Shown one piece after another: positions 555 through 63,329 of a DNA stretch of 64,000 nucleotides (its first letter is position 1; every line of letters begins with the position of its first letter). The notes beneath the pieces are model-generated. The model was not told the origin of the DNA, made no database searches, and saw only the letters and a program-made list of their open reading frames with translations. The position numbers were made by a program, and so were the translations under genes. Source of the DNA: an uncultured Planctomycetaceae bacterium. Lineage in GTDB: Bacteria; Planctomycetota; Planctomycetia; Isosphaerales; Isosphaeraceae. The DNA lies in assembly GCA_963833985.1 (NCBI GenBank), contig CAWIAD010000001.1:1344001-1408000 (forward strand), read 5' to 3'.

Positions 555-1848
555 ATGATTCCAGAACCCATGCTCAATGAGAACGCTCCAGGAGTGCAAG
601 CACGCGGGCGGAACCCGGGTGCACGCCTCCGGTGGTTCGGCCTGGCCCTGATCGCCGCGCTGGCGCTTGCCATTCCGGCCATCGGCTTTCTGCTGATGGG
701 CGAGCGGAAAGATCCCGACACGCTCTGGAGGGAGGGTGAGGCCTACCTCAGGAGCGAGCAGATCGAGCGGGCGGATGCGGTTGCTGACCGCCTGGTTCGC
801 ATGCGGAAGCCCACGCCGCTGGACCTCATGTTCCTGGCCCAGCTCGATCTGGCGCACGACCGCGGCGAGGATGCCGTCTTCAAGTTACGGCAAATACCGG
901 ACCAGCACCCCATGGCCGCGCAGGCCTGGCTCATGATCGGCCGCACCGAGCTCAGGCAACAGCGGGCGCGTCTGGCCGAGGAGGCCCTGCGCAAGGCGCT
1001 CCAGCTCGATCCGAAGCTCGAGGCCGCGCACCGCGAGCTGATCTATATCCTTGGTTACCAGCTCAGGCGAACGGAGCTGAGCGCGGAATTCCTGGCGCTC
1101 TCGCGTCTCACCGAGCTTGGTTTCGATAACATGTTTCACTGGTGCTTGATGCGAACGGCACTCTGGGAACCCGATACGGCCATCGAACAGCTCAGACAGT
1201 TCTCGGAGGCGGATCCCCTCGACCGCTGGTCGCGGATTGCCCTGGCTGACAATTACCGCCGTATGGGCCAGCTTGACGCCGCCGAGGAGACGATCGCACC
1301 GCTGGCGGGCTCCGATGTGGATGCCCTGGCGATCCGGGTCATGCTCGCGATCGACCGGCACGATCACCCGCGCCGAGAGCTTGCTCGCCTCGGGCCCGGC
1401 CGATGATCCCACGCTGGCCCGTCTCAGGGGCCGGCTTGCGCTGGCGCAACGCGACGGCCCGGCCGCGATCCGCTACTTTCGCCGCGCCTACGAACATGAT
1501 CCTCAAGACCGGGACCTGCTGCTTGGCCTGATCAATGCGTTCACCCTGGCCGGTGACGACAAGGACGCTGCGCCGCTGCGCGAGAAGGCCAGGGATTTCG
1601 AGCGGATCAATAGCCTGGTGCAACGGGCGGCGCTTCCCAACGAGCGAGGCAGTCTCGGGCTGATCCGCGAGCTTGGCGCGGCCTGCGCCGCGGCCGGCCG
1701 TCTGCCCGAAGCGCGTGGCTGGTACCGTCTGGCAATCGCACGCGATCCGCTCGACGTCGAGTCGCAGCAGGCACTCTTTCAGATTGACCAGAAAGAGCGG
1801 ACTCGAAACGCGTTGCCCGATGCGGGCGGAAAGCGCCCCGCGGGCTGA
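555..1848 (+). CDS. Tetratricopeptide-repeat protein with N-terminal TM anchor (frameshift near 1367)
   Basis: ORFs 417-1406 and 1237-1848 join at DRHDH/TRAESLL; TPR-like helices AEEALRKALQLDP, AIRYFRRAYEHDP, ARGWYRLAIARDP. Confidence 0.8.
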
Positions 1849-1879
1849 GCGGCCAGATCCTGGACCATTGATTCTTCTC

Positions 1880-2538
1880 ATGCACGATCACAGCTCCGGC
1901 CTGCTGACGCAACCATGGCTGCTGGCCGCCACGGACACCCGGGGCGACTGGCACTTCGGCATCGGAGACCCGACGCCGATTGGCTGGTTCACCGTGTTCG
2001 CTTACCTGGTGGCCACTCTCGCCTGCGGCGTGGTCTGGACCCGCGAGCGGCAGGGCGCAAGCGTGGCGCGGCGGACAGCTCGACTTTCTGGCTGGTGCTG
2101 ACTCTCGCCTTGCTGTTCCTGGGGATCAACAAGCAGCTTGACTTGCAGACCTTGCTGAATGATGTCGGCCGGCGTGTCGCCAGGTCTCAGGGCTGGTATG
2201 ACCGTCGCCGGATTTACCAGACGGCGTTCATCGCCACCGTCGCAACGGCCGGACTCGGCGTTCTGGCGGCCTTCTCGTGGCTGGCTCGCCGGCACTGGAA
2301 GCGCAACTTCCTGGCACTGCTGGGAACCGTATTTCTCTCTGTCTTCGTCTTGACCAGAGCCTCATCCATTCACCATGTGGACGTGATGCTCCGGTGGCGG
2401 TTTCTGGGATGGACCTGGAACTGGATTCTCGAGCTGGGGGGCATCGCCATCGTGGCCACAGGCGCGTTGCTTGCGGCAAGGAGCCCGGGGCACCAAGCAA
2501 CGCGGAGCCCGGATCGTATGTGGTTCCCGCGAAGATAA
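1880..2538 (+). CDS. Conserved integral membrane protein (GIGDPT...GINKQLDLQ type; frameshift near 2055)
   Basis: WHFGIGDPTPIGWFTVFAY in one frame continues as FWLVLTLALLFLGINKQLDLQ...GWYDRRR...WILELGG in another. Confidence 0.7.
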
Positions 2539-2657
2539 CGGGCTCGCATTCCGCCCGCCCGCGAGGGATGTCCGAACGCCGGGTCGTGTCCGGACTCGCC
2601 GGCCCGGACGACTCACCGGATCGTACATCCTCCGCTGGCTGGAGAGGGCGGGGGGGC

Positions 2658-3509
2658 TCAGTGCGCCGAGTCGGCCACAAGGGGCGGCACACCGCGATCC
2701 TGCATGTAGGGGTAACCGGGCTTGAAGGTGGGAGCGATCACCTCGACGAGGTGGCGCGAGGACCAGATGCCGTGCCGTGCGTTGCCAGGGAAGTAGACCC
2801 TGGTCTCTCCCGTCAAGGGGTGCTCGAGCACTTGCCGCGAGCAGATTTGCAGGCCGAGCAAGCAAACCGGGAACTCCGCGGCACGCTCCATGTCACCCAG
2901 CCTGAGCGGCTCGGAGAGGGGCAGGCCGGCGTAGCGGAAAGCTTTCTCCGTCATCTCGACGCAGTAAAGCGCGGAGTCGTCCAGGCCGAGCTCGTAATCA
3001 AACGGGGGTTGCTGCACGAACACCTTGCGGCAATACGCCAGCACCATGGGAATGGCCTTGCGATCCGCGGGCCGCAGCCTCTTGACCCCGAAATTGCCCA
3101 CGTTATCCAGGATCCAGACGCAGAACGGCTGCTTCGCCACGCCGCTTCCGGTCGTATCATAGACCATCGGGGTATCGTTCTCGATGGCGACGATCCCGGT
3201 ATGTGAGAACTTGCTGTTGCTGCAATTCGCGTAGAACCGGCTCATGGGAAAGAACCCGCGGAGTACCCGCGCGTCGCCGAGCCTAAAGACGATGTCTCCA
3301 TCCTTGAGAACCTTGCGGCCCCACTCATCCCAGCGAGCCATCTGCGGCGTCGTCTCGATTGGCGGCAGTTTGCCTTCACGGCGTGCGCGCCACGCGTCCG
3401 GGCCCCAGTAGTTTCCCTGGAAGCCAGGAGGGACCAGGCGGTCGGTCATCTCCCGACCCTCGGGAGGGTACAGGTAGAAGGGCAGGAACAGAAGGAGGAT
3501 CTTGATCAT
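2658..3509 (-). CDS. YiiX/YebB-like permuted NlpC/P60 cysteine hydrolase
   Basis: DGDIVFR, FSHTGIV, FDY...LYCVEM: His before Cys (permuted order). Confidence 0.8.
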   Translation of the reverse strand: MIKILLLFLPFYLYPPEGREMTDRLVPPGFQGNYWGPDAWRARREGKLPPIETTPQMARWDEWGRKVLKDGDIVFRLGDARVLRGFFPMSRFYANCSNSKFSHTGIVAIENDTPMVYDTTGSGVAKQPFCVWILDNVGNFGVKRLRPADRKAIPMVLAYCRKVFVQQPPFDYELGLDDSALYCVEMTEKAFRYAGLPLSEPLRLGDMERAAEFPVCLLGLQICSRQVLEHPLTGETRVYFPGNARHGIWSSRHLVEVIAPTFKPGYPYMQDRGVPPLVADSAH

Positions 3510-12090: not shown

Positions 12091-12132
12091 GAGCGGGTGG
12101 GGGGGAGGCGGACCATTGCCCCCCTGCCTGCG

Positions 12133-13782
12133 TCACATCTCCTTCAGATATTCGTGCACGAACAGGACCGCCATCGACCCCTCGCCGACGGCCGAGGCGA
12201 CGCGCTTGGCCGAGCCGGACCGGACGTCCCCCGCGGCGAAGACCCCGGGGCGGCTGGTCTCCAGCAGGTGCGGCTGCCGGCGCGCCGTCCACGCCTCGGA
12301 ATTCTCCAGGGAGGCCCCGGTCCGCACGAATCCCTTCTCGTCCTTCTCGATCTCCGGGGGGAGCCAGTCGGTCCGCGGCGTCGCGCCAATGAAGCTGAAC
12401 AGGGCGGGGGTCTTGATCGTCCGCGCCTCGCCCGTCTTGTTGTTGACGGCCTCGACCTCGCGGAGGCAGCGTTCCCCGGACATCCGCAGTACCTCGGTGT
12501 CGAGGAGCACTTCGATGTTGGGGGTCTCCTCGATCCGCTTCGCGAGGTAGCTCGACATGTGCTCGTAAAGGTTCCTGCCGCGGACCACCAGGTACACCTT
12601 GCGGACCTGCCCGGAGAGGAAGACGGTGGCCTGGCCGGCGGAGTTACCACCGCCGACGACTACGACGTCCGAGCCCTTGCAGAGCTGCGCCTCGACGGGG
12701 GTCGCGGCGTAATAGACGCCGCACCCTTCGAACCGTTCGCACCCCTCGACGCCCAGGAGGCGATAGTCGGCCCCGGTGGCGATCAGCAGGCACTTGGCCG
12801 AGACCGTCTCGCCGTTGTCCAGGTGCAGCACCGCATACTTGTTGTCGAACGACAGCCCCGTGACCTGCGAGGCGACGGGAAGGTGCGCCCCGAACTTGTT
12901 GGCCTGCACGACGGCGTTCTCGGCAAGTTCACGGCCGGTGATGCCGGTGGGGAAGCCGAGGTAGTTCTCGATCCGCATGCTGCGACCGGCCTGGCCCCCG
13001 GGCGCGTCCCGCTCCAGCACGACCGTGTTCAGCCCCTCGGAGGCGCCGTAGACGGCCGCGGCCAGCCCCGCCGGGCCTGCCCCCACCACGACCAGGTCGT
13101 ACACTGTTTGCTCGAGCGGCCGGCGAAGGGCCAGGGCATTCGCCAGCTCCTCCTTCGAGGGGTTGCGCAGGGTCAGCTTGTGGCCCCAGGTGACCACGGG
13201 CGTGTCGCCCTCGGTGAGCCCGGCCTGCTCGAGAAACTGCTTGACCTGCGGGTCGTCCTCCAGGTCCATCCAGGTAAACGGCACCAGGTTCTTGGCCAGG
13301 AACTCGCGAACGCGAAGGGTGTCCTTCGAATAGCGCGAGCCGATCACGCGCAGGCCCGTGAAGTCCCCCATCTCGTGGAGGAGGTGGCGTCGGGCCATGA
13401 AGGCCCGGAGGATGAGGTCGCCCACGTTCGGGTGGACGTTCATGAGTTCACGCAGGGCGTCGTTCGAGACCTCGAAGACGTCGCTCTCTCCCCGGGCGAC
13501 GCCGCTGAAGATCGCCGGGCCCCCGGTCAACTGGGCCACCTCGCCGGTGAACTCCCCGGGCCGAAGGGTCGCGACGACCTTCGGCTCATCGCCGGCGTCG
13601 TCGATGATCTCGACAGCGCCGGTCTTGACGACGTAGAAGTTGCAGTCGCATTGCCCGGCTTCGAAGAGCTTCTCCCCGTCGCGATAATGCTCGAGCTGCG
13701 ACAGCGGGCAGCCATCCAGCGCGGCGAGCTGGGCGTTGTCGAGCCTGGGGAATGCGGAGGCGTGCAGGTCCTGATCGAGCAT
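12133..13782 (-). CDS. cNMP-binding domain fused to thioredoxin reductase-like FAD oxidoreductase
   Basis: N-terminal FEAGQ...PGEFTGE; VVGAGPAGLAAAVYGASEG, IENYLGFPTGITG, VVGGGNSAGQA, GVFAAGDVRSGS. Confidence 0.92.
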   Translation of the reverse strand: MLDQDLHASAFPRLDNAQLAALDGCPLSQLEHYRDGEKLFEAGQCDCNFYVVKTGAVEIIDDAGDEPKVVATLRPGEFTGEVAQLTGGPAIFSGVARGESDVFEVSNDALRELMNVHPNVGDLILRAFMARRHLLHEMGDFTGLRVIGSRYSKDTLRVREFLAKNLVPFTWMDLEDDPQVKQFLEQAGLTEGDTPVVTWGHKLTLRNPSKEELANALALRRPLEQTVYDLVVVGAGPAGLAAAVYGASEGLNTVVLERDAPGGQAGRSMRIENYLGFPTGITGRELAENAVVQANKFGAHLPVASQVTGLSFDNKYAVLHLDNGETVSAKCLLIATGADYRLLGVEGCERFEGCGVYYAATPVEAQLCKGSDVVVVGGGNSAGQATVFLSGQVRKVYLVVRGRNLYEHMSSYLAKRIEETPNIEVLLDTEVLRMSGERCLREVEAVNNKTGEARTIKTPALFSFIGATPRTDWLPPEIEKDEKGFVRTGASLENSEAWTARRQPHLLETSRPGVFAAGDVRSGSAKRVASAVGEGSMAVLFVHEYLKEM

Positions 13783-17540: not shown

Positions 17541-17625
17541 TACCGGCGGTGGGATTCGAACCCACACGGGGGTTCCCCCCCAGAGGATTTTAAGTCCTCA
17601 GCGTCTGCCATTCCGCCACGCCGGC
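17541..17625 (-). tRNA. tRNA-Leu(TAA)
   Basis: GCCGGCG acceptor, GAGGA-CT-TAA-AA-TCCTC anticodon arm, long variable arm, GGTTCGAATCC; CCA not encoded. Confidence 0.97.
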
Positions 17626-22907: not shown

Positions 22908-22995
22908 CGGAGGGGGTGGGATTCGAACCCACGGACAGGCGGAACCTGTCAACGGTTTTCAAGACCGTCCCGATCAACCACTCTGGCACCCCTCC
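22908..22995 (-). tRNA. tRNA-Ser(TGA)
   Basis: GGAGGGG acceptor, ACGGT-CT-TGA-AA-ACCGT, long variable arm, GGTTCGAATCC, discriminator G. Confidence 0.97.
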
Positions 22996-54184: not shown

Positions 54185-54658
54185 TCACAGACGACGCCGG
54201 GGGCGCAATCGTGCGCTGGCGCTCGTGACAAGGACGGTCCGGGCCCATGCCAGGTTGAGCCAGAGTTGCTTGCGCGAGCGGCGGAAGCTGTCGAAGCTGT
54301 ACCTGAGCCGCATCCCGGCCAACCCCGCCACCACTCCCCCGAGAACCATCGAGGCACCGGCCATCAGGAGCATCGCCCAACCCTGGTGAATCTTCAGTGC
54401 GGAGGCGATCAGCCAGCCCGCGCCGAGCAGCGCCACCGGAACGCTGCTCACGATCACGGAGAGGCCCGCCACGGTCAAAGCGATGGGAATCGCCGACTTC
54501 CGGGCGGCTTCCCTGAAGTCGACGGCCGCGAGCCTGGCCTGGAGTTCGGCAAGCGACGCGACGTCGTCGACGAACTCGGCGACGCCATCGGGCCCCACCG
54601 AGCTGGAACCGGGCACACCTGCCGCCACGCGACCGTTCACGGACGCCTGATCAACCAT
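54185..54658 (-). CDS. YqjE/phage-holin-like membrane protein
   Basis: DDVASLAELQARLA..DFRE plus two TM helices. Confidence 0.7.
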   Translation of the reverse strand: MVDQASVNGRVAAGVPGSSSVGPDGVAEFVDDVASLAELQARLAAVDFREAARKSAIPIALTVAGLSVIVSSVPVALLGAGWLIASALKIHQGWAMLLMAGASMVLGGVVAGLAGMRLRYSFDSFRRSRKQLWLNLAWARTVLVTSASARLRPRRRL

Positions 54659-54849
54659 CCCAGTACGACTCCTGTGCAAAGCGCGATCCCCAGAGCCTTT
54701 ACGGGTTCTCTGGCCACATAGTCCCGCACCATGTCTCTCCCCTCGGCCAGCCGCTCACGAGCGACAGCCACGTCCTGGTGCGCCATGGCCCGGATTTCTT
54801 CCAGGCCGGGAGTAAACTCCGATTTCGTGCCTTGAACGCGGTCATTCAT
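54637..54849 (-). CDS. ElaB/YqjD (DUF883)-like tail-anchored protein
   Basis: YVAREPVKALGIALCTGVVLGWLIRR. Confidence 0.75.
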   Translation of the reverse strand: MNDRVQGTKSEFTPGLEEIRAMAHQDVAVARERLAEGRDMVRDYVAREPVKALGIALCTGVVLGWLIRRP

Positions 54850-54905: not shown

Positions 54906-55379
54906 CTACCGGTCTGCACTGTCCATCCAGCCGCGCCGCTCCTCGGCCGCCGGCGAGACAGCGATCCGGTCCCTGGGCCTGTTCGAGTCACGTTGTTCGA
55001 GCCAGTTCAGCAGGTAATTCTGGCCGGCATGGACGGCCACGGGGAACAGGATGCCCCAGGCGCCGAGCAGCAGATTCTGGACGGTCCTCGATCGTTTCCG
55101 ACCCACGGTGCTGGCTCCCGCGATCGGTTCAACAGCCTGAGCCCCATCTGCCAATGCTGCGGTATCGGCCGAGACCTTCTGATGCCCGCTGGTGTAGACC
55201 AGGAATCCAACTGAAGCCGCCGCGCCCAAGGCGATCCAGGGATACGTCCACGTGTACCTTCCCCAATCAACGACCGCCTCGGCGCCGGCGACCGATTCGC
55301 GCACGTTCGTATGAAGCTCGCGGCGAATCACCGCCATGCGATTGTAGATCTCATCAACGTCATTCGATCCCGCGGCCAC
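54906..55379 (-). CDS. Hypothetical membrane protein of the stress cluster
   Basis: MAVIRRELH...YTWTYPWIALGAAASVGFLV; same orientation as its neighbours. Confidence 0.65.
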   Translation of the reverse strand: MAAGSNDVDEIYNRMAVIRRELHTNVRESVAGAEAVVDWGRYTWTYPWIALGAAASVGFLVYTSGHQKVSADTAALADGAQAVEPIAGASTVGRKRSRTVQNLLLGAWGILFPVAVHAGQNYLLNWLEQRDSNRPRDRIAVSPAAEERRGWMDSADR

Positions 55380-55443: not shown

Positions 55444-55614
55444 TCAAACGGCCGGCCCCCACCTCCTGCCAAAGATCAGCGAGATCACGAACAGGGCCAG
55501 GAAAACGAACAGCAAAATCTTGGCGATCATCCCGAGAGTACCGGCAAGGGCCACGAAGCCCAGGACGCCGGCGAGCAAGGCGAGGATCGCGAATGTGATG
55601 GCATACCCGAGCAT
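55444..55614 (-). CDS. DUF1328 (YtjA-like) small membrane protein
   Basis: [38 protein letters not shown]. Confidence 0.9.
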
Positions 55615-55757
55615 GGAAGGCTCTCCTCTCACGGAAAAGGCTGGTGCTTACCGCGAGCTGGGTCCGCCCCAGGCCTCGCAACGAGAATAATGACGATTCG
55701 GGAGTCAAGCGTGACGTACCCCTTGCAGCAGCAGCGGGCAGACCAGATCCAGATTCC

Positions 55758-55916
55758 TCAAATGCGCCCCAGGAGGACCAGGATCAGGACGATTACCAAG
55801 ACCAGGCCCAGGCCGCCGCTGGGGCCGTAGCCCCAGTTCCGGCTATAGCCCCAGCGCGGGAAGGCACCCAGCAGGAGCAGGATCAAGACAATCAGCAAGA
55901 TCATCCCGAGACTCAT
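55758..55916 (-). CDS. DUF3309 small membrane protein (52 aa, not in ORF track)
   Basis: MSLGMILLIVLILLLLGAFPRWGYSRNWGYGPSGGLGLVLVIVLILVLLGRI*. Confidence 0.92.
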   Translation of the reverse strand: MSLGMILLIVLILLLLGAFPRWGYSRNWGYGPSGGLGLVLVIVLILVLLGRI

Positions 55917-55980
55917 CGATTACCCCTTTTGATGGTCTGACATCTCATGGAAGCCGGTGCCTTGAACGCCTCGGCAAGCG

Positions 55981-56185
55981 AAACAAAAAAGCCGACGTGG
56001 TGGAACACCCAGAGGTATTCGACCACGTCGGCTTACTCGTCAACGAGCCCCCCGGCCAAGCCGGGTTGCCCTTTATCTAGTCATCCGACAACTTCGATCC
56101 AACTTTTCACCGGAGCCGAACGTGAGTTGACACTGACTCCGGAACTACATTCATTGTCCTGCGTGAGAATGGAAAAGCAAGTGAA
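55981..56185 (-). ncRNA. Candidate cis-regulatory leader (riboswitch/attenuator), copy 1, including its promoter
   Basis: TTGCTT-N16-GACAAT; hairpin CCGGAGTC/GGCTCCGG; GTCGG antiterminator strand; terminator AAGCCGACGTGG...CCACGTCGGCTT plus T-run; upstream of the DUF3309 operon. Confidence 0.8.
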
Positions 56186-56288
56186 TTCTTTACCGATTTC
56201 TTGTGCCATCGATCTGTGCGATCTTCATGCGGGGGAGTCTGGCCCGCAACGAAGGCGGGCTGACATCGTTTCCTCGAAGCAATGGCGT

Positions 56289-56495
56289 TCAGCGGCCCGC
56301 GTCCTTGATCTTCTCACCCACGTTGTGCACAACATCCTTGCTTTTCTCGGCAACGTTGTGCGCGGCGTCCTTGACCTTCGCGCCGACATCATGTGCGGCA
56401 TCCCTGGTCTTCTCGGCAACGTTGTGCGCGGCATCCTTGACCTTCACAGCAGCGTCGTGAATCCCCTCCTTCATCTTGTCGCCCGTGTTCGCCAT
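56289..56495 (-). CDS. Small LEA-like hydrophilic protein with 11-aa repeats
   Basis: AGGAG SD; KVKDAAHNVAE / KTRDAAHDVGA / KVKDAAHNVAE / KSKDVVHNVGE. Confidence 0.8.
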   Translation of the reverse strand: MANTGDKMKEGIHDAAVKVKDAAHNVAEKTRDAAHDVGAKVKDAAHNVAEKSKDVVHNVGEKIKDAGR

Positions 56496-56856
56496 GGTCT
56501 GTCTCCTGTTCCGATGGTGGAAGTCATGAAAAAAACACCCTCTCGCGCGACTGCTCACGCAGCAGGGCCACCTTGACCTTGAACTCCCCACCCCATCGAA
56601 AGTGGGGAAGTTCTAACTTCACTTGATGTCAGACGTTTCCAGATGTCAATAGGTTTCTGGTCAGCGATCGATCTTGTGCTCCGGATCAACGTCGGCCTTC
56701 GGCGATTTACGTCCCCGCACTCCGGATCCAGATTGATCCTCAAGAGGACGAGACCCGGACCACCCAGGTCGTGCCGTGCCGCGACCATGATTCATCAGGA
56801 GAGACTCACCGATTCGGACGTGCAGAATGGCCGGTTGGCCTGATCAGGAAGGATAC

Positions 56857-58785
56857 TCACAGATCGGAGATCTCTTTCGGGGGAAGTGCAGCCCTCAAGG
56901 CGTTCACCACCGCAAGGACATCGATAACCTCTTGGCTGATCGCTCCGCCTACTGGACTCAGATGACCGGTCGCCGCGAACACCATGCCGACAATGCTGAG
57001 GACCATTCCGCCCACGGCGCTCTGCAGCGCGATCGAACGCATCCGGCGGCTGATGTGCATGAACTCGTCCACTTTCTTGATGGAGTTATCCATGACCACG
57101 ACCCCCGCTGCTTCCGCGGTCACGTCGCTGTTCTGCCCGATCGCCATGCCCACCGTTGCGGCCATCATGGCCGGGGCGTCATTGATGCCATCACCGACAT
57201 AGAGCGTTTTCGCCTTTGCCGTTTCGGTGCGGACAATGGCCAGCTTCTCTTCGGGACTTTTCTGGGCCTCGATCTCGGTGATGCCAACCTGCTCGGCCAG
57301 GTAGCGAACCTCGGATTCACGATCTCCCGACACGATCATCAATCGCTTGAATTGGTGCCGGGGTCCCAGGTGCGATATGAAGGAGCGGCTCTCCGCGCGT
57401 GGAGCATCACGAAACCGCAAGGCCCCCGCATAGCGATGGCCGATTGCCACCACACACTCGAGCCCACCTGCGACAGGAGGGAGTTGATCGGTCCCCGCGG
57501 TCGCTTGCGCGATGAGCTTGCTGCGACTCGTGATCTGTAATTGATGTGTGGAAACGGATCCGAGCAGACCGTGGCCAGGCTGGTCGCTGACCTCGGTGGC
57601 GTCCAGGAGTTGAATTCCCTCTTCCTTCGCCGCGGCGAGAATGGCCCGCGCCAACGGATGTTTCGAGTATCTTTCCAGACTCGCTACCAGGGTCAGTACC
57701 TCGTTTTGCTCAAAGCCAGGAGCGACGAGTTGCTCAGTCAGCTTCGGCTGGCCATACGTTAGCGTCCCGGTCTTGTCGAAGATCGCAGTCCGGCACTCGG
57801 CGATTTGCTCAAGTACCACGGGGCTCTTGATTATGATGGCCCGACGTGCACAGAGGGAAATAGAGCCGATGATGGCAATCGGTATCGCGAGGAGCAAAGG
57901 GCAAGGCGTGGCGATGACCAGCACCGCAAGGAATCGAACGGCCTCTCCACTCAGGGCCCACGCGAGGATTGCGACCGTGACTGCAATCGGAGTATAAATC
58001 GCCCCCAATCGATCACCCATCCGCCGCAATTGCGGTCGCTTCTCCTCGGATTCGCGCATGACGAGCATGATCTTGGCGTAGCGCGAATCGGCGGCTCGTT
58101 GGGTCGCCCTGATGGACAGGGCCGATTCGCCATTGAGCGCACCCGAGATGACCGTCGAGCCCGAGGTCTTGCTCATCTGAAATGGCTCGCCCGTGAGATA
58201 GGATTCGTCCATGACGCCGCGTCCTTCGATGACCACGCCATCCACCGGGCAGATGTCATGGGGATAGATCACGAGCGTTTCTCCTACGACAATGTCCGCC
58301 AGAGCCACGTCGGTGATCTGGCCATCCTTCTTCCGGTGAGCCATCGAAGGCATCCTTTTGGCCAGCGCAGCCAGCACCGATGAGGCGCTGCGCAGGGCGT
58401 AACTCTCGAGCGCTTCCCCACCTGCCAGCATCAACACGATGATCGATCCGGCCAGGTACTCGCCCAGCAGGACCGAAGTGATAATGGAAATGCCTCCCAG
58501 CAGATCAGAACCGAATTCCCGCTTCAGGAGCTTCAGGAACAGCTCGTAGAGGAGAGGAATTCCTCCTAGAATGATCGTGGCCAGCAGGGGAAGCTGGTAG
58601 ACTGAGGGACTCACCTGAAAGGCGAATCGCAGCATGAGATGTGCGAGGATCGCCACGACACAAAGAGCCGCGATGACCGTGCTCATGCGATGCCAGAAAG
58701 CGTCCAGTGATTCCCTTATCCAACCGTGTGTCGGTTGATGGTTCAGCGTTGAGTCTGTCATCTTCGGTTCGTGGTCGGTCTTCAT
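56857..58785 (-). CDS. Heavy-metal P1B-type ATPase (P1B-5-like)
   Basis: [35 protein letters not shown]. Confidence 0.93.
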
Positions 58786-58882
58786 TTCACTTCATTGAAC
58801 GGGTGCGGGAGCTTCTTGGAGGGGGCGTTGCATGTCACCGAATCTTTTTGCATATTATTCATAAGTGCGCGTGATTATCACT

Positions 58883-59308
58883 TCACTCGTCAGAGCACTC
58901 GGATCCCCGGGGGAGGATGAGCCACTCGTTCCGGATCTCCCCTGACGGCGCATACCTCTTCAGCACCTTGAAGACGGCCCAGGCAAGGCGCTCCGGATCG
59001 ACCTCTGGGTTGTTGCGGAAGGCCGTCGCGATTTGAGAGAGGAAAGCCTGCTTCTCGCTCTCCCGTGGTGGCGTCCCACTCGGACTCCAGCCCTCGTAAT
59101 ACATGCCACGGACCAGGAGTGGCAGTTGCGAGCCCAGGGCAGCCACTGCCTCTAAAGGGAGTCGGTCCCGGAGTGCATGGAGGACAACCTGCAATGCGCG
59201 GTAGGCCCGAGTACGGTCCTGCCAGCCCAGGTCGGCCATCAAATCACATAGCCAGAGATCCGTCGTATGAAGAGTCGTTGCAATGGGCGAGCATCTAGTT
59301 AATAGCAT
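58883..59308 (-). CDS. DUF2267 family protein
   Basis: AYRALQVVLHALRDRLP, QLPLLVRGMYYEGW. Confidence 0.88.
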   Translation of the reverse strand: MLLTRCSPIATTLHTTDLWLCDLMADLGWQDRTRAYRALQVVLHALRDRLPLEAVAALGSQLPLLVRGMYYEGWSPSGTPPRESEKQAFLSQIATAFRNNPEVDPERLAWAVFKVLKRYAPSGEIRNEWLILPRGSECSDE

Positions 59309-59447
59309 ATCTTATACTCCTTTTATAAGAATTGGACTCCGGGAAAAAACACTGGGCATGAAAGATATGCTTGAGCAGCTGTTTCACCGCATGAGGTCCC
59401 TCCAGCATTGAATGGAATCCTCGGATATTCCTTCCCCGCTTGATGAT

Positions 59448-59837
59448 TCAGAAGTTTGACTTCTTTTTGACTTCACGGAACTGGGGTCCCTCTGCCAGGG
59501 TAAAGAGAACGACCTCTTCACCGGTCACTGTGCTGATGTCGTGGTGCATGCTCAGCACCTGGCTGCCAGTGCACTCATCGACCATCGCTTCCATGATCGG
59601 CCGCGCAGTTTCGAGCAGATAGGTCCGGACTTGCTTGAGCAGGTCTCTGCCCTTCTCGGCCGGAAACGACTTGACCAGATTCTGTTCGGCGGCAGTTAAG
59701 ACGCCCTGAAGGCGTACCACGATGAGATCATCGATCAAATGTGTGCGGATAGCCTTGTGTCCACGGCCCGTGTACTCCAGCTCGAAGCGACTCATGCCCT
59801 GACAGATGGAGGCTTCGATCTCGCCCTGCGTTTTCAT
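59448..59837 (-). CDS. DUF2294 / MpsC-family protein
   Basis: MKTQGEIEASIC..SRFELEYTGRG..., LQGVLTAAEQ, LLKQVRT, SMHHDISTVTGEEVVLFTL. Confidence 0.88.
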   Translation of the reverse strand: MKTQGEIEASICQGMSRFELEYTGRGHKAIRTHLIDDLIVVRLQGVLTAAEQNLVKSFPAEKGRDLLKQVRTYLLETARPIMEAMVDECTGSQVLSMHHDISTVTGEEVVLFTLAEGPQFREVKKKSNF

Positions 59838-59975
59838 GGTGACCTCCAACCCGTCCCCTCTCGCAGTCGAGAGGACGCAAGCTCGGAGTTTCCCGGATGC
59901 CAAACGAGTCCACGTTTTCCGTTCCTCGGTCGTTCAGGGTCTCTCACCTCCACCATACGCGATGCTGGGTGAGGG

Positions 59976-60172
59976 TTCACTTGCTTTTCTCGTCTAGCGC
60001 GGCACAATAAGCGAGGTCAGAGAGCCGTCAACAGTCGGCTCTCATGAAAACTTGAATCCAGGCCGTCGGCCGACTAGATGAAGAGCAACCCGGCTGGTCT
60101 GGGGGGCTGGTTAGCGAGTAAGTCGACGTGGTCGAATACCTTGGGGTGTTCCGCCACGTCGGCTTTTTTTTT
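59976..60172 (+). ncRNA. Candidate cis-regulatory leader (riboswitch/attenuator), copy 2, including its promoter
   Basis: TTGCTT-N16-CACAAT; hairpin GAGAGCCG/CGGCTCTC; GTCGG strand; terminator AAGTCGACGTGG...CCACGTCGGCTT plus T9; upstream of the radical SAM gene. Confidence 0.8.
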
Positions 60173-60216
60173 CATTTGCGGTGACGCCGAGCGGTCGCAG
60201 GCACCAGGAACGCACC

Positions 60217-61797
60217 ATGACTGATCTACTCCGGGTCGTGATCCTCAAGCCCAGCAAGTACAGGGCAGACGGCTACGTAGAACGTTTTCGATGGGGGTTC
60301 ATGCCCAACAGCACCCTGCCGCATTTCCGGAGCATGACGCCGGACAGGCTGGGCGGCACGCAGGTGGAAGTCCACACGGTCGACGAATACGTCCATACCG
60401 ACCTGGGGTACCTGTCCCTGCTCAGGGGGCGCCGGGGTGTCCGGACGCTGGTGGCTCTGGTGGGAGTGCAGAGCCATCAGTTCCACCGCGCGCTGGACCT
60501 CGCGGCGTATGCCCGGCGAAACGGCTGCCTGGCGGTCATCGGTGGCCCCCACGTGATGACCTGCGACACGTCGATGCTGCACGACCGCGGGGTGAGCTTC
60601 GCGCTGGCCGAGGCGGAGTTGGTCTGGCGGGAAATCCTTGAGGACGCGCTGGGGGGCGAGTTGCGGCCGGTCTATGGCGCGGAAGGGCGGTGGCAGCTTG
60701 AGCTGGAGGCGCCGGTCGTCGTGCCGCCGGGCCGGCAAGACCTGCGCCGCTACATCATCCCGATGCTCGGGCTGTACCCGGCCCGCGGGTGCCAGTTCAC
60801 ATGCAACTTCTGCTCGGTGATCAAGATCGCCGGGCGGCGGATTCGCAGCCAGAGCATCGACACTACCCTGGCCAGTCTCCGCGCCGCCAAGGCGGGGGGC
60901 GTGCGCACGATCATGTTCACCTCGGACAACTTCAACAAGTATCCCGAGGCCGAGGAGTTGCTTTCGGCCATCGTGAAGGAGCGCCTGGGGCTGGAGTTCT
61001 TCGTGCAGTGTGATACGCAGGTCGCTAGACAGGAGCGCCTGGTGGCGCTTCTGGCCCAGGCCGGGTGCTACCAGATGTTCGTCGGCGTCGAGTCGTTCAA
61101 CCGCCAGACCTTGCTGGCGGCCCGGAAGGGACAGAACCGTCCGGAGATGTACCGCGACATTGTACGACTGTGCCGCGAACACCGAATCAGCTCGCACTTT
61201 TCCAACATCATCGGCTTCCCGCAGGACATGGAAGAGGACGTGGACCAGCACCTGGAAATGCTCCGCGAGCTGGGCCCGACGTTCGCCTCCTTCTACATCC
61301 TCTGCCCGATTCCCGGCACCGAGCAGTATGACAAGTTCGTGGCCGAGGGCCTGGTCACGGAAAACAACCTTGACCGATTCGACACGACGTGTCTGACCTG
61401 GCGCCACCCCCACTTCTCGCGCGAAGAGTTGGCCGGGTTGCTGTTTCGGTGTTATCGCAAGTTCTACTCGTCTGGCCACGCGGTGCGCAACTTGATGGAC
61501 CTCGGCGGGCGGAGAGGTGGGGTGCTGGCGGAGTCGGTGGGGATCACTGGCATGGCGCTGTTCAATCGATATTGCACGTGGCGGCGGACCCATCCCATGT
61601 CGGGCGGGATCATCCGCGTGATGCGGGACCGTGTGGACGACTTCCTCCATCTGCGCAAGGACACGTTCGGCTTCAAGCTGGTTCCGCTGCCGCGCAGCTT
61701 GCAACTGGTGGAGGCGGACAGCTTGCTGAACCGGGCTATCGATCCGCAGGCGTGGACGAGTCTGTCACGCGCAACCGGCCACTCGATCGAGCACTGA
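60217..61797 (+). CDS. Radical SAM protein with B12-binding-like N-terminal domain
   Basis: ILKPSKY..DGYV, LVGVQSHQF, IGGPH, RGCQFTCNFCS (CxxxCxxC), FVGVES, IIGFP, PIPGT. Confidence 0.9.
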   Translation: MTDLLRVVILKPSKYRADGYVERFRWGFMPNSTLPHFRSMTPDRLGGTQVEVHTVDEYVHTDLGYLSLLRGRRGVRTLVALVGVQSHQFHRALDLAAYARRNGCLAVIGGPHVMTCDTSMLHDRGVSFALAEAELVWREILEDALGGELRPVYGAEGRWQLELEAPVVVPPGRQDLRRYIIPMLGLYPARGCQFTCNFCSVIKIAGRRIRSQSIDTTLASLRAAKAGGVRTIMFTSDNFNKYPEAEELLSAIVKERLGLEFFVQCDTQVARQERLVALLAQAGCYQMFVGVESFNRQTLLAARKGQNRPEMYRDIVRLCREHRISSHFSNIIGFPQDMEEDVDQHLEMLRELGPTFASFYILCPIPGTEQYDKFVAEGLVTENNLDRFDTTCLTWRHPHFSREELAGLLFRCYRKFYSSGHAVRNLMDLGGRRGGVLAESVGITGMALFNRYCTWRRTHPMSGGIIRVMRDRVDDFLHLRKDTFGFKLVPLPRSLQLVEADSLLNRAIDPQAWTSLSRATGHSIEH

Positions 61798-62483: not shown

Positions 62484-63329
62484 ATGAAACTCAATGTTGG
62501 CTACGACATCGTGTACGATTGCCCGAAACCCACTCCCATGATCTTGACGCTGAGCATTCACTATTCTCGCGTGTCCGACCTGCTGAGACCCGACACGCTC
62601 GTCATCAACCCGTCCGCCCCGATCAAGGCATACCGCGACGGGTTTGGCAACTGGTGCAGCCGGATCGTCGCTCCGAAGGGGGAAATCCAGCTCAAGGCTG
62701 ATTCGATCGTCAGCGACCCAGGGACGACCGACCGCATCGAAAAGGGGGCACAGCAGCACGCGGTCCACGACCTGCCCGAGGAGACCTTGATGTACCTTCT
62801 GGGGAGTCGCTATTGCGAGACCGACAGCCTGTCGGAGACGGCCTGGACGCTCTTCGAAAAGACACCCGCCGGATGGGGTCGCGTTCAGGCTATCTGTGAT
62901 TTCGTCCACCAGCATATCCAGTTCGGCTACGAGCACGCGCGGCCAACAAGGACCGCACTTGGAGCGTATCGCGAGCGCCACGGAGTCTGTCGAGATTTCG
63001 CCCACCTGGCGATCGCCTTTTGTCGCTGCATGAATATCCCCGCGCGCTATTGCACCGGGTATCTCGGCGATATCGGCGTACCGCCGTCCCAGGCCCCCAT
63101 GGACTTCCACGCTTGGTTCGAGGCATTCCTCGGCGGTCAGTGGCACATCTTCGACTCCCGCAATAATGTCCCGCGGATCGGTCGCGTCTTGATCGCGCAA
63201 GGCCGAGACGCTTCCGATGTGGCGATCAGCACGACATTCGGTCCGTGCACGCTGAAATCATTCCGGGTCTGGACCGACGAACTCATCGCACCCGAACAAT
63301 CCTCGCCCCGAACGCCTGCACTTCAATAG
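62484..63329 (+). CDS. Transglutaminase-like protein
   Basis: DGFGN, SRYCETD, GVCRDFAH, PARYCTGYL, DFHAWFE, GRDASDV. Confidence 0.93.
   Translation: MKLNVGYDIVYDCPKPTPMILTLSIHYSRVSDLLRPDTLVINPSAPIKAYRDGFGNWCSRIVAPKGEIQLKADSIVSDPGTTDRIEKGAQQHAVHDLPEETLMYLLGSRYCETDSLSETAWTLFEKTPAGWGRVQAICDFVHQHIQFGYEHARPTRTALGAYRERHGVCRDFAHLAIAFCRCMNIPARYCTGYLGDIGVPPSQAPMDFHAWFEAFLGGQWHIFDSRNNVPRIGRVLIAQGRDASDVAISTTFGPCTLKSFRVWTDELIAPEQSSPRTPALQ

Follow-up and report, generated by a model that had tools for sequence, protein, structure and literature searches.

What a structured leader does for the gene behind it is the question raised by two stretches of about 200 nucleotides (nt) in the genome of an uncultured Planctomycetaceae bacterium (assembly GCA_963833985.1). 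They lie in a window of 64,000 nt, the whole stretch of DNA analysed here (contig CAWIAD010000001.1, positions 1,344,001 to 1,408,000), point away from each other and each stand directly 5' of a gene. An earlier sequence-only reading had described a twice-repeated element with a terminator/antiterminator switch, a candidate new riboswitch or attenuator. The leader is a previously undescribed RNA family, phylum-wide and multicopy. Its sensor domain is conserved, structured and supported by covariation, as is characteristic of riboswitches, and the leader is probably a conditional ON-type transcription attenuator before general-stress genes in Planctomycetota.

A multicopy leader RNA family of the Planctomycetota

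The two window copies (copy 1 on the minus strand, copy 2 on the plus strand) were aligned at 84% mean column identity over 249 columns. They form an inverted repeat with arms at 55982-56119 and 60035-60172 (138 nt, 83% identity), and a second pair of arms at 56153-56185 and 59976-60008 (33 nt, 79% identity) holds the promoters. The 105-nt core is ungapped with exactly 14 mismatches, the number the sequence-only reading had counted by hand, and every element listed there for either copy was found in its place (Table 1). These include the promoter at one end and the intrinsic terminator at the other, and 8-bp 5' hairpins whose arms differ in sequence between the copies. Both copies folded better than 200 of 200 shuffles, with z-scores of -5.55 (copy 1) and -4.24 (copy 2). 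The resemblance of the two copies is far beyond chance.

The description as a twice-repeated element did not hold. BLAST of copy 1 against its own genome (10.16 Mb, 2 contigs) gave ten places with the core of about 110 nt. A covariance model built from these ten copies (R1) returned exactly 10 full-length matches, at 100.8-141.1 bits (c10 scoring lowest, at 100.8 bits); 10 further listed matches, at 37 bits or less, were the reverse strands of near-palindromic terminators. Six copies, among them the two in the window, lie within 21 kb on contig C1 and three within 23 kb on contig C2. At E ≤ 0.01, R1 matched 29 of 61 relatives (25 with strong full-length matches, judged by best E-value). In a class-wide sample of 151 genomes it matched 19, and in a phylum-wide sample, likewise of 151, it matched 6, of which three lie outside the class.

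Species-representative genomes were searched with a degenerate sensor-only pattern that stops at CCG, before the terminator. At least 132 stretches were found, and all 80 matches listed carry Planctomycetota names, from three classes (Planctomycetia, Phycisphaerae and Candidatus Brocadiia; lineages checked). Isosphaeraceae, Gemmataceae, Planctomycetaceae, Pirellulales including Thermoguttaceae, Phycisphaerae including Tepidisphaeraceae, and Candidatus Kuenenia were represented among the matches listed. A sensor-only covariance model (R2) gave the same ten copies in the own genome, with none added, and the same genomes in the phylum-wide sample. All 82 sensors picked by the pattern were full-length R1 matches with a terminator, one of them cut by a contig end. 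No sensor lacking a terminator was thus found, either with R2 in the own genome and the phylum-wide sample or among the 82 pattern-picked sensors, so these searches give no evidence for alternative expression platforms.

Some copies stand in unusual arrangements. Two tandem elements occur in genome G053 (L078, 401-530 and 583-712), each with a terminator, about 50 nt apart and before an Ice_binding-like gene; in L084 and L114 two elements enclose a short open reading frame (ORF). Copy c7 (C2:1346185 onward; L121 / L038) is followed only by an ORF of 62 residues, similar to the N-terminal part of the GAF histidine kinase found after copy c6, and then by unrelated ORFs; this locus may be rearranged or decayed.

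A repeat of the kind of a miniature inverted-repeat transposable element or a repetitive extragenic palindrome, with an outward promoter and spreading within genomes, would account for the many copies clustered in two genome regions, for the high sequence identity across classes, and for the fact that closely related copies have the promoter as well as the RNA in common. Such an origin is very improbable: a repeat search of the window found no inverted repeats at the termini apart from those of the internal hairpins, the core had no BLAST match among 72,556 plasmid records, the matches listed outside the own genome all bear Planctomycetota names, one orientation is kept relative to the downstream genes, and the helices covary, as described below.

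The leader matched no family of Rfam 15. At gathering thresholds, two tRNAs were the only matches in the whole window (17541-17625 and 22908-22995, both on the minus strand). A permissive scan (E up to 10) of positions 55700-60500 gave six matches, all with E ≥ 0.87 and far under the gathering scores. The best that overlap the element were mir-605 (18.9 bits; gathering score 98), ctRNA_pGA1 (17.8; 45) and P6 (14.8; 50), and the overlapping matches fit the terminator hairpin only. Full-text literature searches brought up no description of this leader RNA, nor any paper linking DUF3309 or DUF2294, families encoded next to the leader, to riboswitches; a search on the names DUF2294, MpsC and YbcI themselves was obscured by unrelated 'mPSC' papers.

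Sensor hairpin, basal helix and terminator

RNAalifold of the ten copies gave a long imperfect hairpin with the terminator directly after it. The hairpin is rod-like, conserved, interrupted by purine-rich internal loops and closed by a basal helix, P1. Pairing was measured in an alignment of 60 distinct copies (A3), in which 95.5% of cells were paired against 85.2% after shuffling; 30 of 35 pairs had changed on both sides, and none of 500 shuffles reached any observed measure. Controls with the pairing slid along the alignment fell to 30-48% paired. The 85 phylum-wide rows (A6) behaved alike, with 95.6% against 89.5% paired, 23 of 35 pairs changed on both sides and again none of 500 shuffles reaching the observed values. 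Changes on both sides were seen in 12 of 12 pairs of the hairpin helices (columns 35-42/76-83 and 45-49/66-71) and in 17 of 20 pairs of the terminator helix (A3). The hairpin and the terminator are well supported by covariation.

Sequence conservation is confined to particular parts of this structure. The apical loops of hairpin and terminator vary freely. Near-invariance is seen in the internal loops and at the base, with UCGGA-GAC as the 5' strand and AGUAA-CCG as the 3' strand, and in the A-rich and G-rich 2x2 and 3x3 loops. Two explanations of the conserved words were tried and set aside. A tiny ORF (ATG ACT AGA TAA) does not last, its ATG being replaced by ACG or AAG in many copies, and a kink-turn at the 3x3 loop has an order of G and A residues that misfits the kink-turn consensus.

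The 3' strand of P1 doubles as the opening 5-6 nt of the terminator 5' arm, and the terminator 3' arm repeats the word GUCGG. In copy 1 the terminator arms are 21 nt long and 90% complementary, and the 5' base of the stem overlaps the P1 3' strand. The 5' GUCGG can pair with the 5' strand of the terminator, so that the two helices are mutually exclusive, as the sequence-only reading had proposed; the C-to-T change it noted in copy 2 does leave G-U pairs in both helices (pair 25:93, GU in 1 row). P1 (columns 21-25 with 93-97) is 93.3% paired in A3, where two of its inner three pairs occur in all 60 rows and the other in 59. Column 22 stays U, with A as partner in 45 rows and G in 15, and this A/G switch is compensated by U/C in the terminator. 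One clear compensatory case was found, in L087, where GUUGG / CCAAC / GUUGG is a matched change on all three strands. Across the phylum-wide set, in which the CGG:CCG core is fixed by the search pattern, P1 often reaches six pairs: of the 82 rows, 75 pair U with A or G, 53 pair G with C and 60 pair C or U with G. The antiterminator helix thus stood up as near-invariant and tolerant of wobble pairs; covariation as strong as that of the hairpin and the terminator was not seen in it. Since P1 is almost invariant, it is conservation that speaks for it.

Predicted energies fit an exchange between the two helices. When folded up to a point before the terminator 3' arm, 55 of 60 copies had the inner three P1 pairs in their minimum-energy structure. 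In full-length folds the terminator was the more stable, with a median margin of 9.2 kcal/mol (range 1.5-16.3). As judged from conservation and these predictions, the leader has an expression platform whose helix excludes the sensor helix.

The following course of events is proposed. Transcription would start at the element's own sigma-70-like promoter, and the emerging RNA would fold into the rod hairpin, with P1 (5'-(C/U)GUCGG with CCGACG-3') closing across the 3x3 loop (A-N-G / A-A-G). By default the terminator 3' arm, with its GUCGG word, would displace the P1 5' strand, and polymerase would stop at the U-run. If P1 and the loop were stabilised, the base of the terminator could not form beside the U-run and polymerase would read through into the stress genes. 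This would be the layout of a kinetically controlled ON switch. Regulated read-through, and the effector that it implies, are what we infer; the overlap of the helices is observed. A heat-induced RNA thermometer was considered and set aside: heat would melt the weaker P1 and so promote termination, opposite to an induction of Hsp20 and DnaK genes.

Table 1. Features of the two leader copies and of the genes next to them (positions in the window)
Feature	Position	Strand	Details
Copy 1 promoter	56153..56180	-	-35 TTGCTT (56180-56175), 16-nt spacer, -10 GACAAT (56158-56153)
Copy 1 variable 5' hairpin	56110..56142	-	8 bp; CCGGAGTC ... GGCTCCGG
Copy 1 sensor	56027..56089	-	RNAalifold, pair counts; sensor-only model R2, 92.8 bits
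Copy 1 P1		-	5' strand GTCGG (56089-56085), 3' strand CCGAC (56031-56027)
Copy 1 sensor interior		-	3x3 loop ATG/AAG, ACT/AGT helix (AGT 56037-35), rod hairpin GGGCAACCCGG...CCGGGGGGCTC
Copy 1 intrinsic terminator	55985..56034	-	46-nt stem 56034-55989, six-T run 55990-55985
DUF3309 gene, 52 aa, first after copy 1	55758..55916	-	PF11752, E 1.8e-23
DUF1328 ORF	55447-55632	-	PF07043
ORF without Pfam family	54909-55379	-	co-oriented, after copy 1
Holin-X-like ORF	54188-54679	-	PF07332
Copy 2 promoter	59981..60008	+	-35 TTGCTT (59981-59986), 16-nt spacer, -10 CACAAT (60003-60008)
Copy 2 variable 5' hairpin	60020..60043	+	8 bp; GAGAGCCG ... CGGCTCTC
Copy 2 sensor	60065..60127	+	model R2, 69.4 bits
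Copy 2 P1		+	5' strand GTCGG (60065-60069), 3' strand TCGAC (60123-60127)
Copy 2 sensor interior		+	loop CCG/AAG, ACT/AGT helix, rod hairpin
Copy 2 intrinsic terminator	60120..60172	+	stem 60120-60165, nine-T run to 60172
Radical SAM gene, after copy 2	60217..61797	+	PF04055, E 5.4e-23; ATG 45 nt past copy 2 T-run
MpsC/DUF2294 gene, B type, 129 aa	59451..59837	-	divergent from copy 2; PF10057, E 7e-33

Downstream genes, read-through and the MpsC neighbours

The first co-oriented ORFs of the 60 copies in A3 were listed, and 68 ORFs were scanned against Pfam. The position directly 5' of co-oriented genes, noted earlier for the two window copies (in copy 1 the DUF3309 start codon lies 63 nt beyond the model 3' end), recurs among their relatives: in 38 of 60 copies a Pfam-named co-oriented gene starts 11-450 nt after the element, and three more are followed by an MpsC gene recognised with our own hidden Markov models (HMMs). 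The first-gene families are DUF3309 (11 copies), MpsC/DUF2294 (10), DUF1328, CsbD, YflT, Band_7, BON, Ice_binding, HPF (Ribosomal_S30AE), Transgly_assoc, ATP synthase beta, GAF histidine kinase, Transglut_core, DUF4142 and radical SAM. Of 42 first co-oriented ORFs scanned from phylum-wide copies that lack a neighbouring MpsC gene, 29 had a Pfam family: Hsp20 (3), Hsp70, ferritin-like (2, one in Kuenenia), DUF892, CsbD, YflT (3), Transgly_assoc (2), KaiC-like (2), P-type ATPase N-termini (2; L197 and L179) and, once each, a sigma-70 region 2 protein, PAS, ArsD, NifU and others. Gene content of this kind is typical of general stress regulons in other bacteria. The set as a whole covers stress functions broadly and singles out no one metabolite. 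The stress small-protein operon and the radical SAM gene that the sequence-only reading had taken to be co-regulated are both present in the window; the regulon is far broader than these two and amounts to a general-stress set.

Several genes near the copies were recorded alongside. Just upstream of copy 1, the gene at 56292-56591 (minus strand) contains five tandem 33-nt (11-residue) repeats and has YtxH and Synuclein matches below the cut-offs; its product resembles a stress protein of the late embryogenesis abundant type or an apolipoprotein-like one. Between the copies, 56860-59308 (minus strand) encodes a P-type ATPase (E1-E2_ATPase and Hydrolase, 642 aa) and a DUF2267 protein. A transglutaminase-like gene (62484-63326, plus strand) lies downstream of the radical SAM gene, and in another genome a Transglut_core gene is the first after the element (L099). 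Outside the class, the ORF after one element (L116 of genome G222, 1623-3129, plus strand) reads by eye from its translation as GH94 / cyclic beta-1,2-glucan synthase-type.

Two loci show that the terminator has to be passed. The gene upstream of copy 2 is divergent and the 45-nt gap behind the T-run fits no separate promoter, so the radical SAM gene needs read-through from the copy 2 promoter. The layout at copy c2 of the same genome is alike, with a divergent MpsC gene upstream and the start codon 45 nt beyond the model 3' end (at the two loci, 42-45 nt past the U-run), and read-through is needed there too. Judged from the layout of these loci, this need is the strongest argument for action in cis; it bears on passing of the terminator and says nothing on regulation.

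These observations bear on the reading of the element as a multicopy family of trans-acting small RNAs (sRNAs), with a product of about 115-175 nt that pairs with mRNAs or binds or titrates a protein. The 5' CGGANGACU word or the internal loops would then be the seed or binding site, and the position near stress genes would reflect co-regulation. The element is indeed self-contained, having its own promoter and a terminator of great strength (the median of 9.2 kcal/mol given above), it occurs in many copies per genome and in the searches above its sensor was never found without the terminator; the sequence conservation of the 5' word and the lower terminator stem across classes fits a whole-molecule product better than an expression platform. 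An sRNA gene would not call for the non-random orientation and spacing seen here, with 38 of 60 copies before a co-oriented gene of a recurrent family, nor for the genes after copy 2 and c2, which have no other promoter and can be reached only past the terminator. We regard an sRNA family as unlikely, although a dual role as leader and sRNA is possible.

RNA data were sought in public runs. Those sharing words with the region were soil, peat and wetland metatranscriptomes only, with 3-5 of 50 words each. Four runs were mapped at 85% likeness, and the contigs obtained all came from relatives. Many of them follow the core as far as the U-run and differ from there on (loose ends at 55985: 27 in X3, 7 in X2, 6 in X1), and three X2 contigs of 435-772 nt contain the core and 300-680 nt of unlike sequence beyond the terminator. 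The pattern is compatible with many paralogous leaders and read-through RNAs and gives weak support at the RNA level.

Of 60 related upstream regions, 32 carry the promoter motif CTTGNNN-N15-18-NANN[AT]T; shuffles gave a mean of 3.0 and a maximum of 9. A simple sigma-70/consensus scanner, whose rules count stems to at most 20 pairs, flagged neither the promoter nor the terminator of either window copy; the promoter was called from the recurrent motif and the terminator from folding and covariation, both window copies having a 20-pair stem directly followed by 6-9 U. The distance from the -10 box to the conserved CGG falls into two clusters, at about 67 nt or about 17 nt (the latter in, for example, L095, L097, L093 and L094). 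The variable 5' hairpin is accessory and several distant copies are without it. Promoter sequence and distance thus vary, and the sensor-terminator unit is constant.

Control could lie at this promoter or with a DNA-binding factor, the leader being constitutive: the terminator would be leaky, the hairpin would set a fixed low read-through or stabilise or mark the 5' end of the mRNA, and MpsC would be cargo. The recurrent promoter motif could alone explain co-regulation, the broad regulon is as expected under a sigma or transcription factor, and switching itself is inferred. Promoter control needs neither a covarying hairpin with near-invariant loops across three classes nor a 5' word that mimics the terminator 3' arm in every copy, and it is the promoter that varies and the 5' hairpin that is dispensable while the sensor-terminator unit is kept. 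A constitutive leader is accordingly an improbable explanation.

MpsC genes are closely linked to the leader. The ORF 59451-59903 (minus strand) beside copy 2 scored 113.5 bits against PF10057 (cut-off 23), which places it in this Pfam family, and PF10057 is its only domain; close homologues are named 'DUF2294 domain-containing protein [Isosphaeraceae bacterium]' or 'YbcI'. MpsC genes near the element are of two types, an A type (about 139 aa) directly after it and a B type (129 aa) divergent upstream. Each of the six PF10057 matches in the own genome has an RNA copy within 350 nt, a B-type gene adjoins seven of the ten copies (c2, c3, c5, c6, c7, c9 and c10), and DabA, the usual MpsC partner locus, is more than 1 megabase away. 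In 24 of the 61 relatives a strong RNA match and PF10057 occurred together; 1 genome, 89% complete, had the RNA without PF10057, 4 had MpsC without the RNA, and 32 had neither. Kin are not independent in this correlation, and part of it follows from physical linkage. A divergent B gene was found within 1 kb in 15 of the 38 copies having at least 1 kb of upstream sequence (own HMMs). Phylum-wide, 34 of 82 copies, including one from Kuenenia, have an MpsC gene within 600 nt; 20 of these have a divergent B gene, 20 a downstream A gene and 3 a same-strand upstream B gene, some copies having both B and A.

Single-copy genomes tend to have the order B, divergent from the RNA, followed by A, which suggests an ancestral locus from which the leader later spread to stress genes in Isosphaeraceae. 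The conserved MpsC neighbour also opens a protein-dependent alternative to a metabolite riboswitch. MpsC may be a trans factor of the leader or its ancestral cargo. The MpsC-B model (AlphaFold2, predicted local distance difference test score 86) had no sequence relative in the PDB. Foldseek gave nothing at E ≤ 0.001 (best YslB, 3njc, E 0.031, then H-NOX domains) and VIA-align reached a best Z of 6.7, with generic alpha/beta folds, so that the fold gives no functional clue. A complex prediction of MpsC-B with MpsC-A returned 'no answer' (score 0.00, mark 0.32) and is evidence neither way.

On contig C1 an MpsC-B gene (C1:1420392-1420727, plus strand) stands between two elements (C1:1420119-1421041; L119 about 12119-13041), c6 divergent upstream and c10 on the same strand downstream, and the same arrangement recurs on C2 with c7 and c9. 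The same island contains a PP2C/SpoIIE-type phosphatase gene (L119:1436-2353, minus strand) beside a truncated MpsC-B gene, and a GAF-HisKA-HATPase-receiver hybrid kinase gene (L119:10213-12162, minus strand) directly after c6; we take these to be the kinds of signalling proteins found in stress partner-switching systems. A metagenomic MpsC-B homologue (P0004, 167 aa, 53% identity) has an internal duplication of about 40 residues.

Weighing of the proposed attenuator and comparison with known systems

The reading of the leader as a conditional ON-type attenuator has several points standing against it. P1 is short, with only CGG:CCG universal and the outer pairs present in 43 to 54 of 60 rows. 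Compensatory changes are almost absent from it, which leaves room for other causes behind the conservation of the 5' CGGANGAC word, for example a role as protein site or trans seed. Across classes the lower terminator stem (GCCGACGUGG / CCACGUCGGC) keeps its sequence, something uncommon in the expression platforms of riboswitches that points to a constraint the model leaves unexplained; it may reflect a three-strand constraint or an extra function. For a metabolite riboswitch the regulon would be very wide. In 19 of 60 copies no co-oriented gene of a named family lies within about 550 nt, and c10 is followed by a convergent ORF matching Cytochrome_P460. The MpsC-B model has no recognisable RNA-binding fold, and the MpsC genes may be ancestral cargo. 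The metatranscriptome contigs come from other organisms and carry neither ends nor strand, and RNA libraries can hold DNA.

Known systems offer parallels for each kind of effector. The Na+ (DUF1646 motif) and Li+ (nhaA-I motif) riboswitches are single rod hairpins whose base competes with a terminator, and binding turns them ON. The leader resembles them in its rod hairpin with conserved internal loops and in the competition of its base with an intrinsic terminator, and some ion or osmotic genes stand downstream of it (P-type cation ATPases, BON/OsmY-like, ATP synthase beta and MpsC, the latter being part of a Na+-translocating system in the Pfam description). It differs in its conserved nucleotides, has no Rfam match (E up to 10), is restricted to Planctomycetota and precedes a general-stress regulon, not ion transporters. 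The c-di-GMP-I, c-di-AMP/ydaO and ppGpp riboswitches occur in many copies per genome before diverse genes, as befits a global signal. The leader is likewise multicopy, stands before diverse genes and has tandem copies (L078), but it matches none of these riboswitches in sequence or structure in Rfam.

In protein-dependent leaders (BglG/SacY-RAT, HutP, ANTAR and PyrR), a hairpin overlaps the 5' arm of the terminator and the regulator gene often lies beside its own leader. The overlap of hairpin and terminator, the divergent MpsC-B gene and the MpsC-A gene first downstream are similar; MpsC, in contrast, has no CAT/PRD, ANTAR, HutP or PyrR domain and no clear structural relative. ANTAR targets carry two tandem hexaloop hairpins (A1, G4), the second overlapping the terminator. 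The alignments, on inspection, contain a single long rod hairpin whose apical loop varies. Paired hexaloop hairpins were not seen, and a target of the ANTAR type was rejected.

The nearest topic found in the literature is a candidate cis RNA with an intrinsic terminator 5' of a CsbD-family general-stress gene: the YjbJ motif, a weak riboswitch candidate reported from Streptococcus only, with 40 representatives and two hairpins, for which the authors leave ligand or protein factor open (Narunsky et al., 2024; PMC11109978). The present leader is similar in kind and differs in being specific to Planctomycetota, in its structure and in its many gene families.

The effector of the attenuator could be a small ligand or ion, which would make the leader a true riboswitch, or it could be a protein, with MpsC as the leading candidate; the chances of the two are about even. 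Stress regulons of sigma-B, EcfG and RpoS include CsbD, YflT, DUF1328/YtjA, Transgly_assoc/YeaQ, BON/OsmY, HPF, Dps/ferritin-like, DUF892 and Hsp20 genes. The genes downstream of the leader are similar in content; what they share, in contrast, is a structured leader RNA ending in a terminator and not, or not only, a sigma promoter. We know of no described general stress regulator for Planctomycetota, and none was found in our literature searches. A bolder extension, possible but on balance doubtful, is that the RNA is the master cis-element of the planctomycetal general stress response, in the role that stress sigma factors have elsewhere, and is switched either by direct binding of a global stress signal (an alarmone, a second messenger or an ion) or by the adjacent MpsC/DUF2294 protein as a new RNA-binding antiterminator. 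The version with a global signal would, if true, be a new riboswitch class. In the MpsC version, the divergent B-type protein would be the sensor and the leader-controlled A-type protein would provide feedback, and DUF2294 would gain its first molecular function.

Gene regulation in Planctomycetota has been little studied. One conserved leader before genes for Hsp20, DnaK, Dps-like, CsbD, YflT, OsmY-like and HPF proteins and small membrane proteins delineates a candidate stress regulon from sequence, and it links the uncharacterised DUF2294/MpsC family to RNA-based control. As an orphan sensor RNA with a compact, defined core (about 65 nt), it lends itself to the hunt for a ligand or protein. 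The leader can also serve as a marker for annotating planctomycete stress genes, many DUFs among them, and its copies in Candidatus Kuenenia extend this to anammox bacteria.

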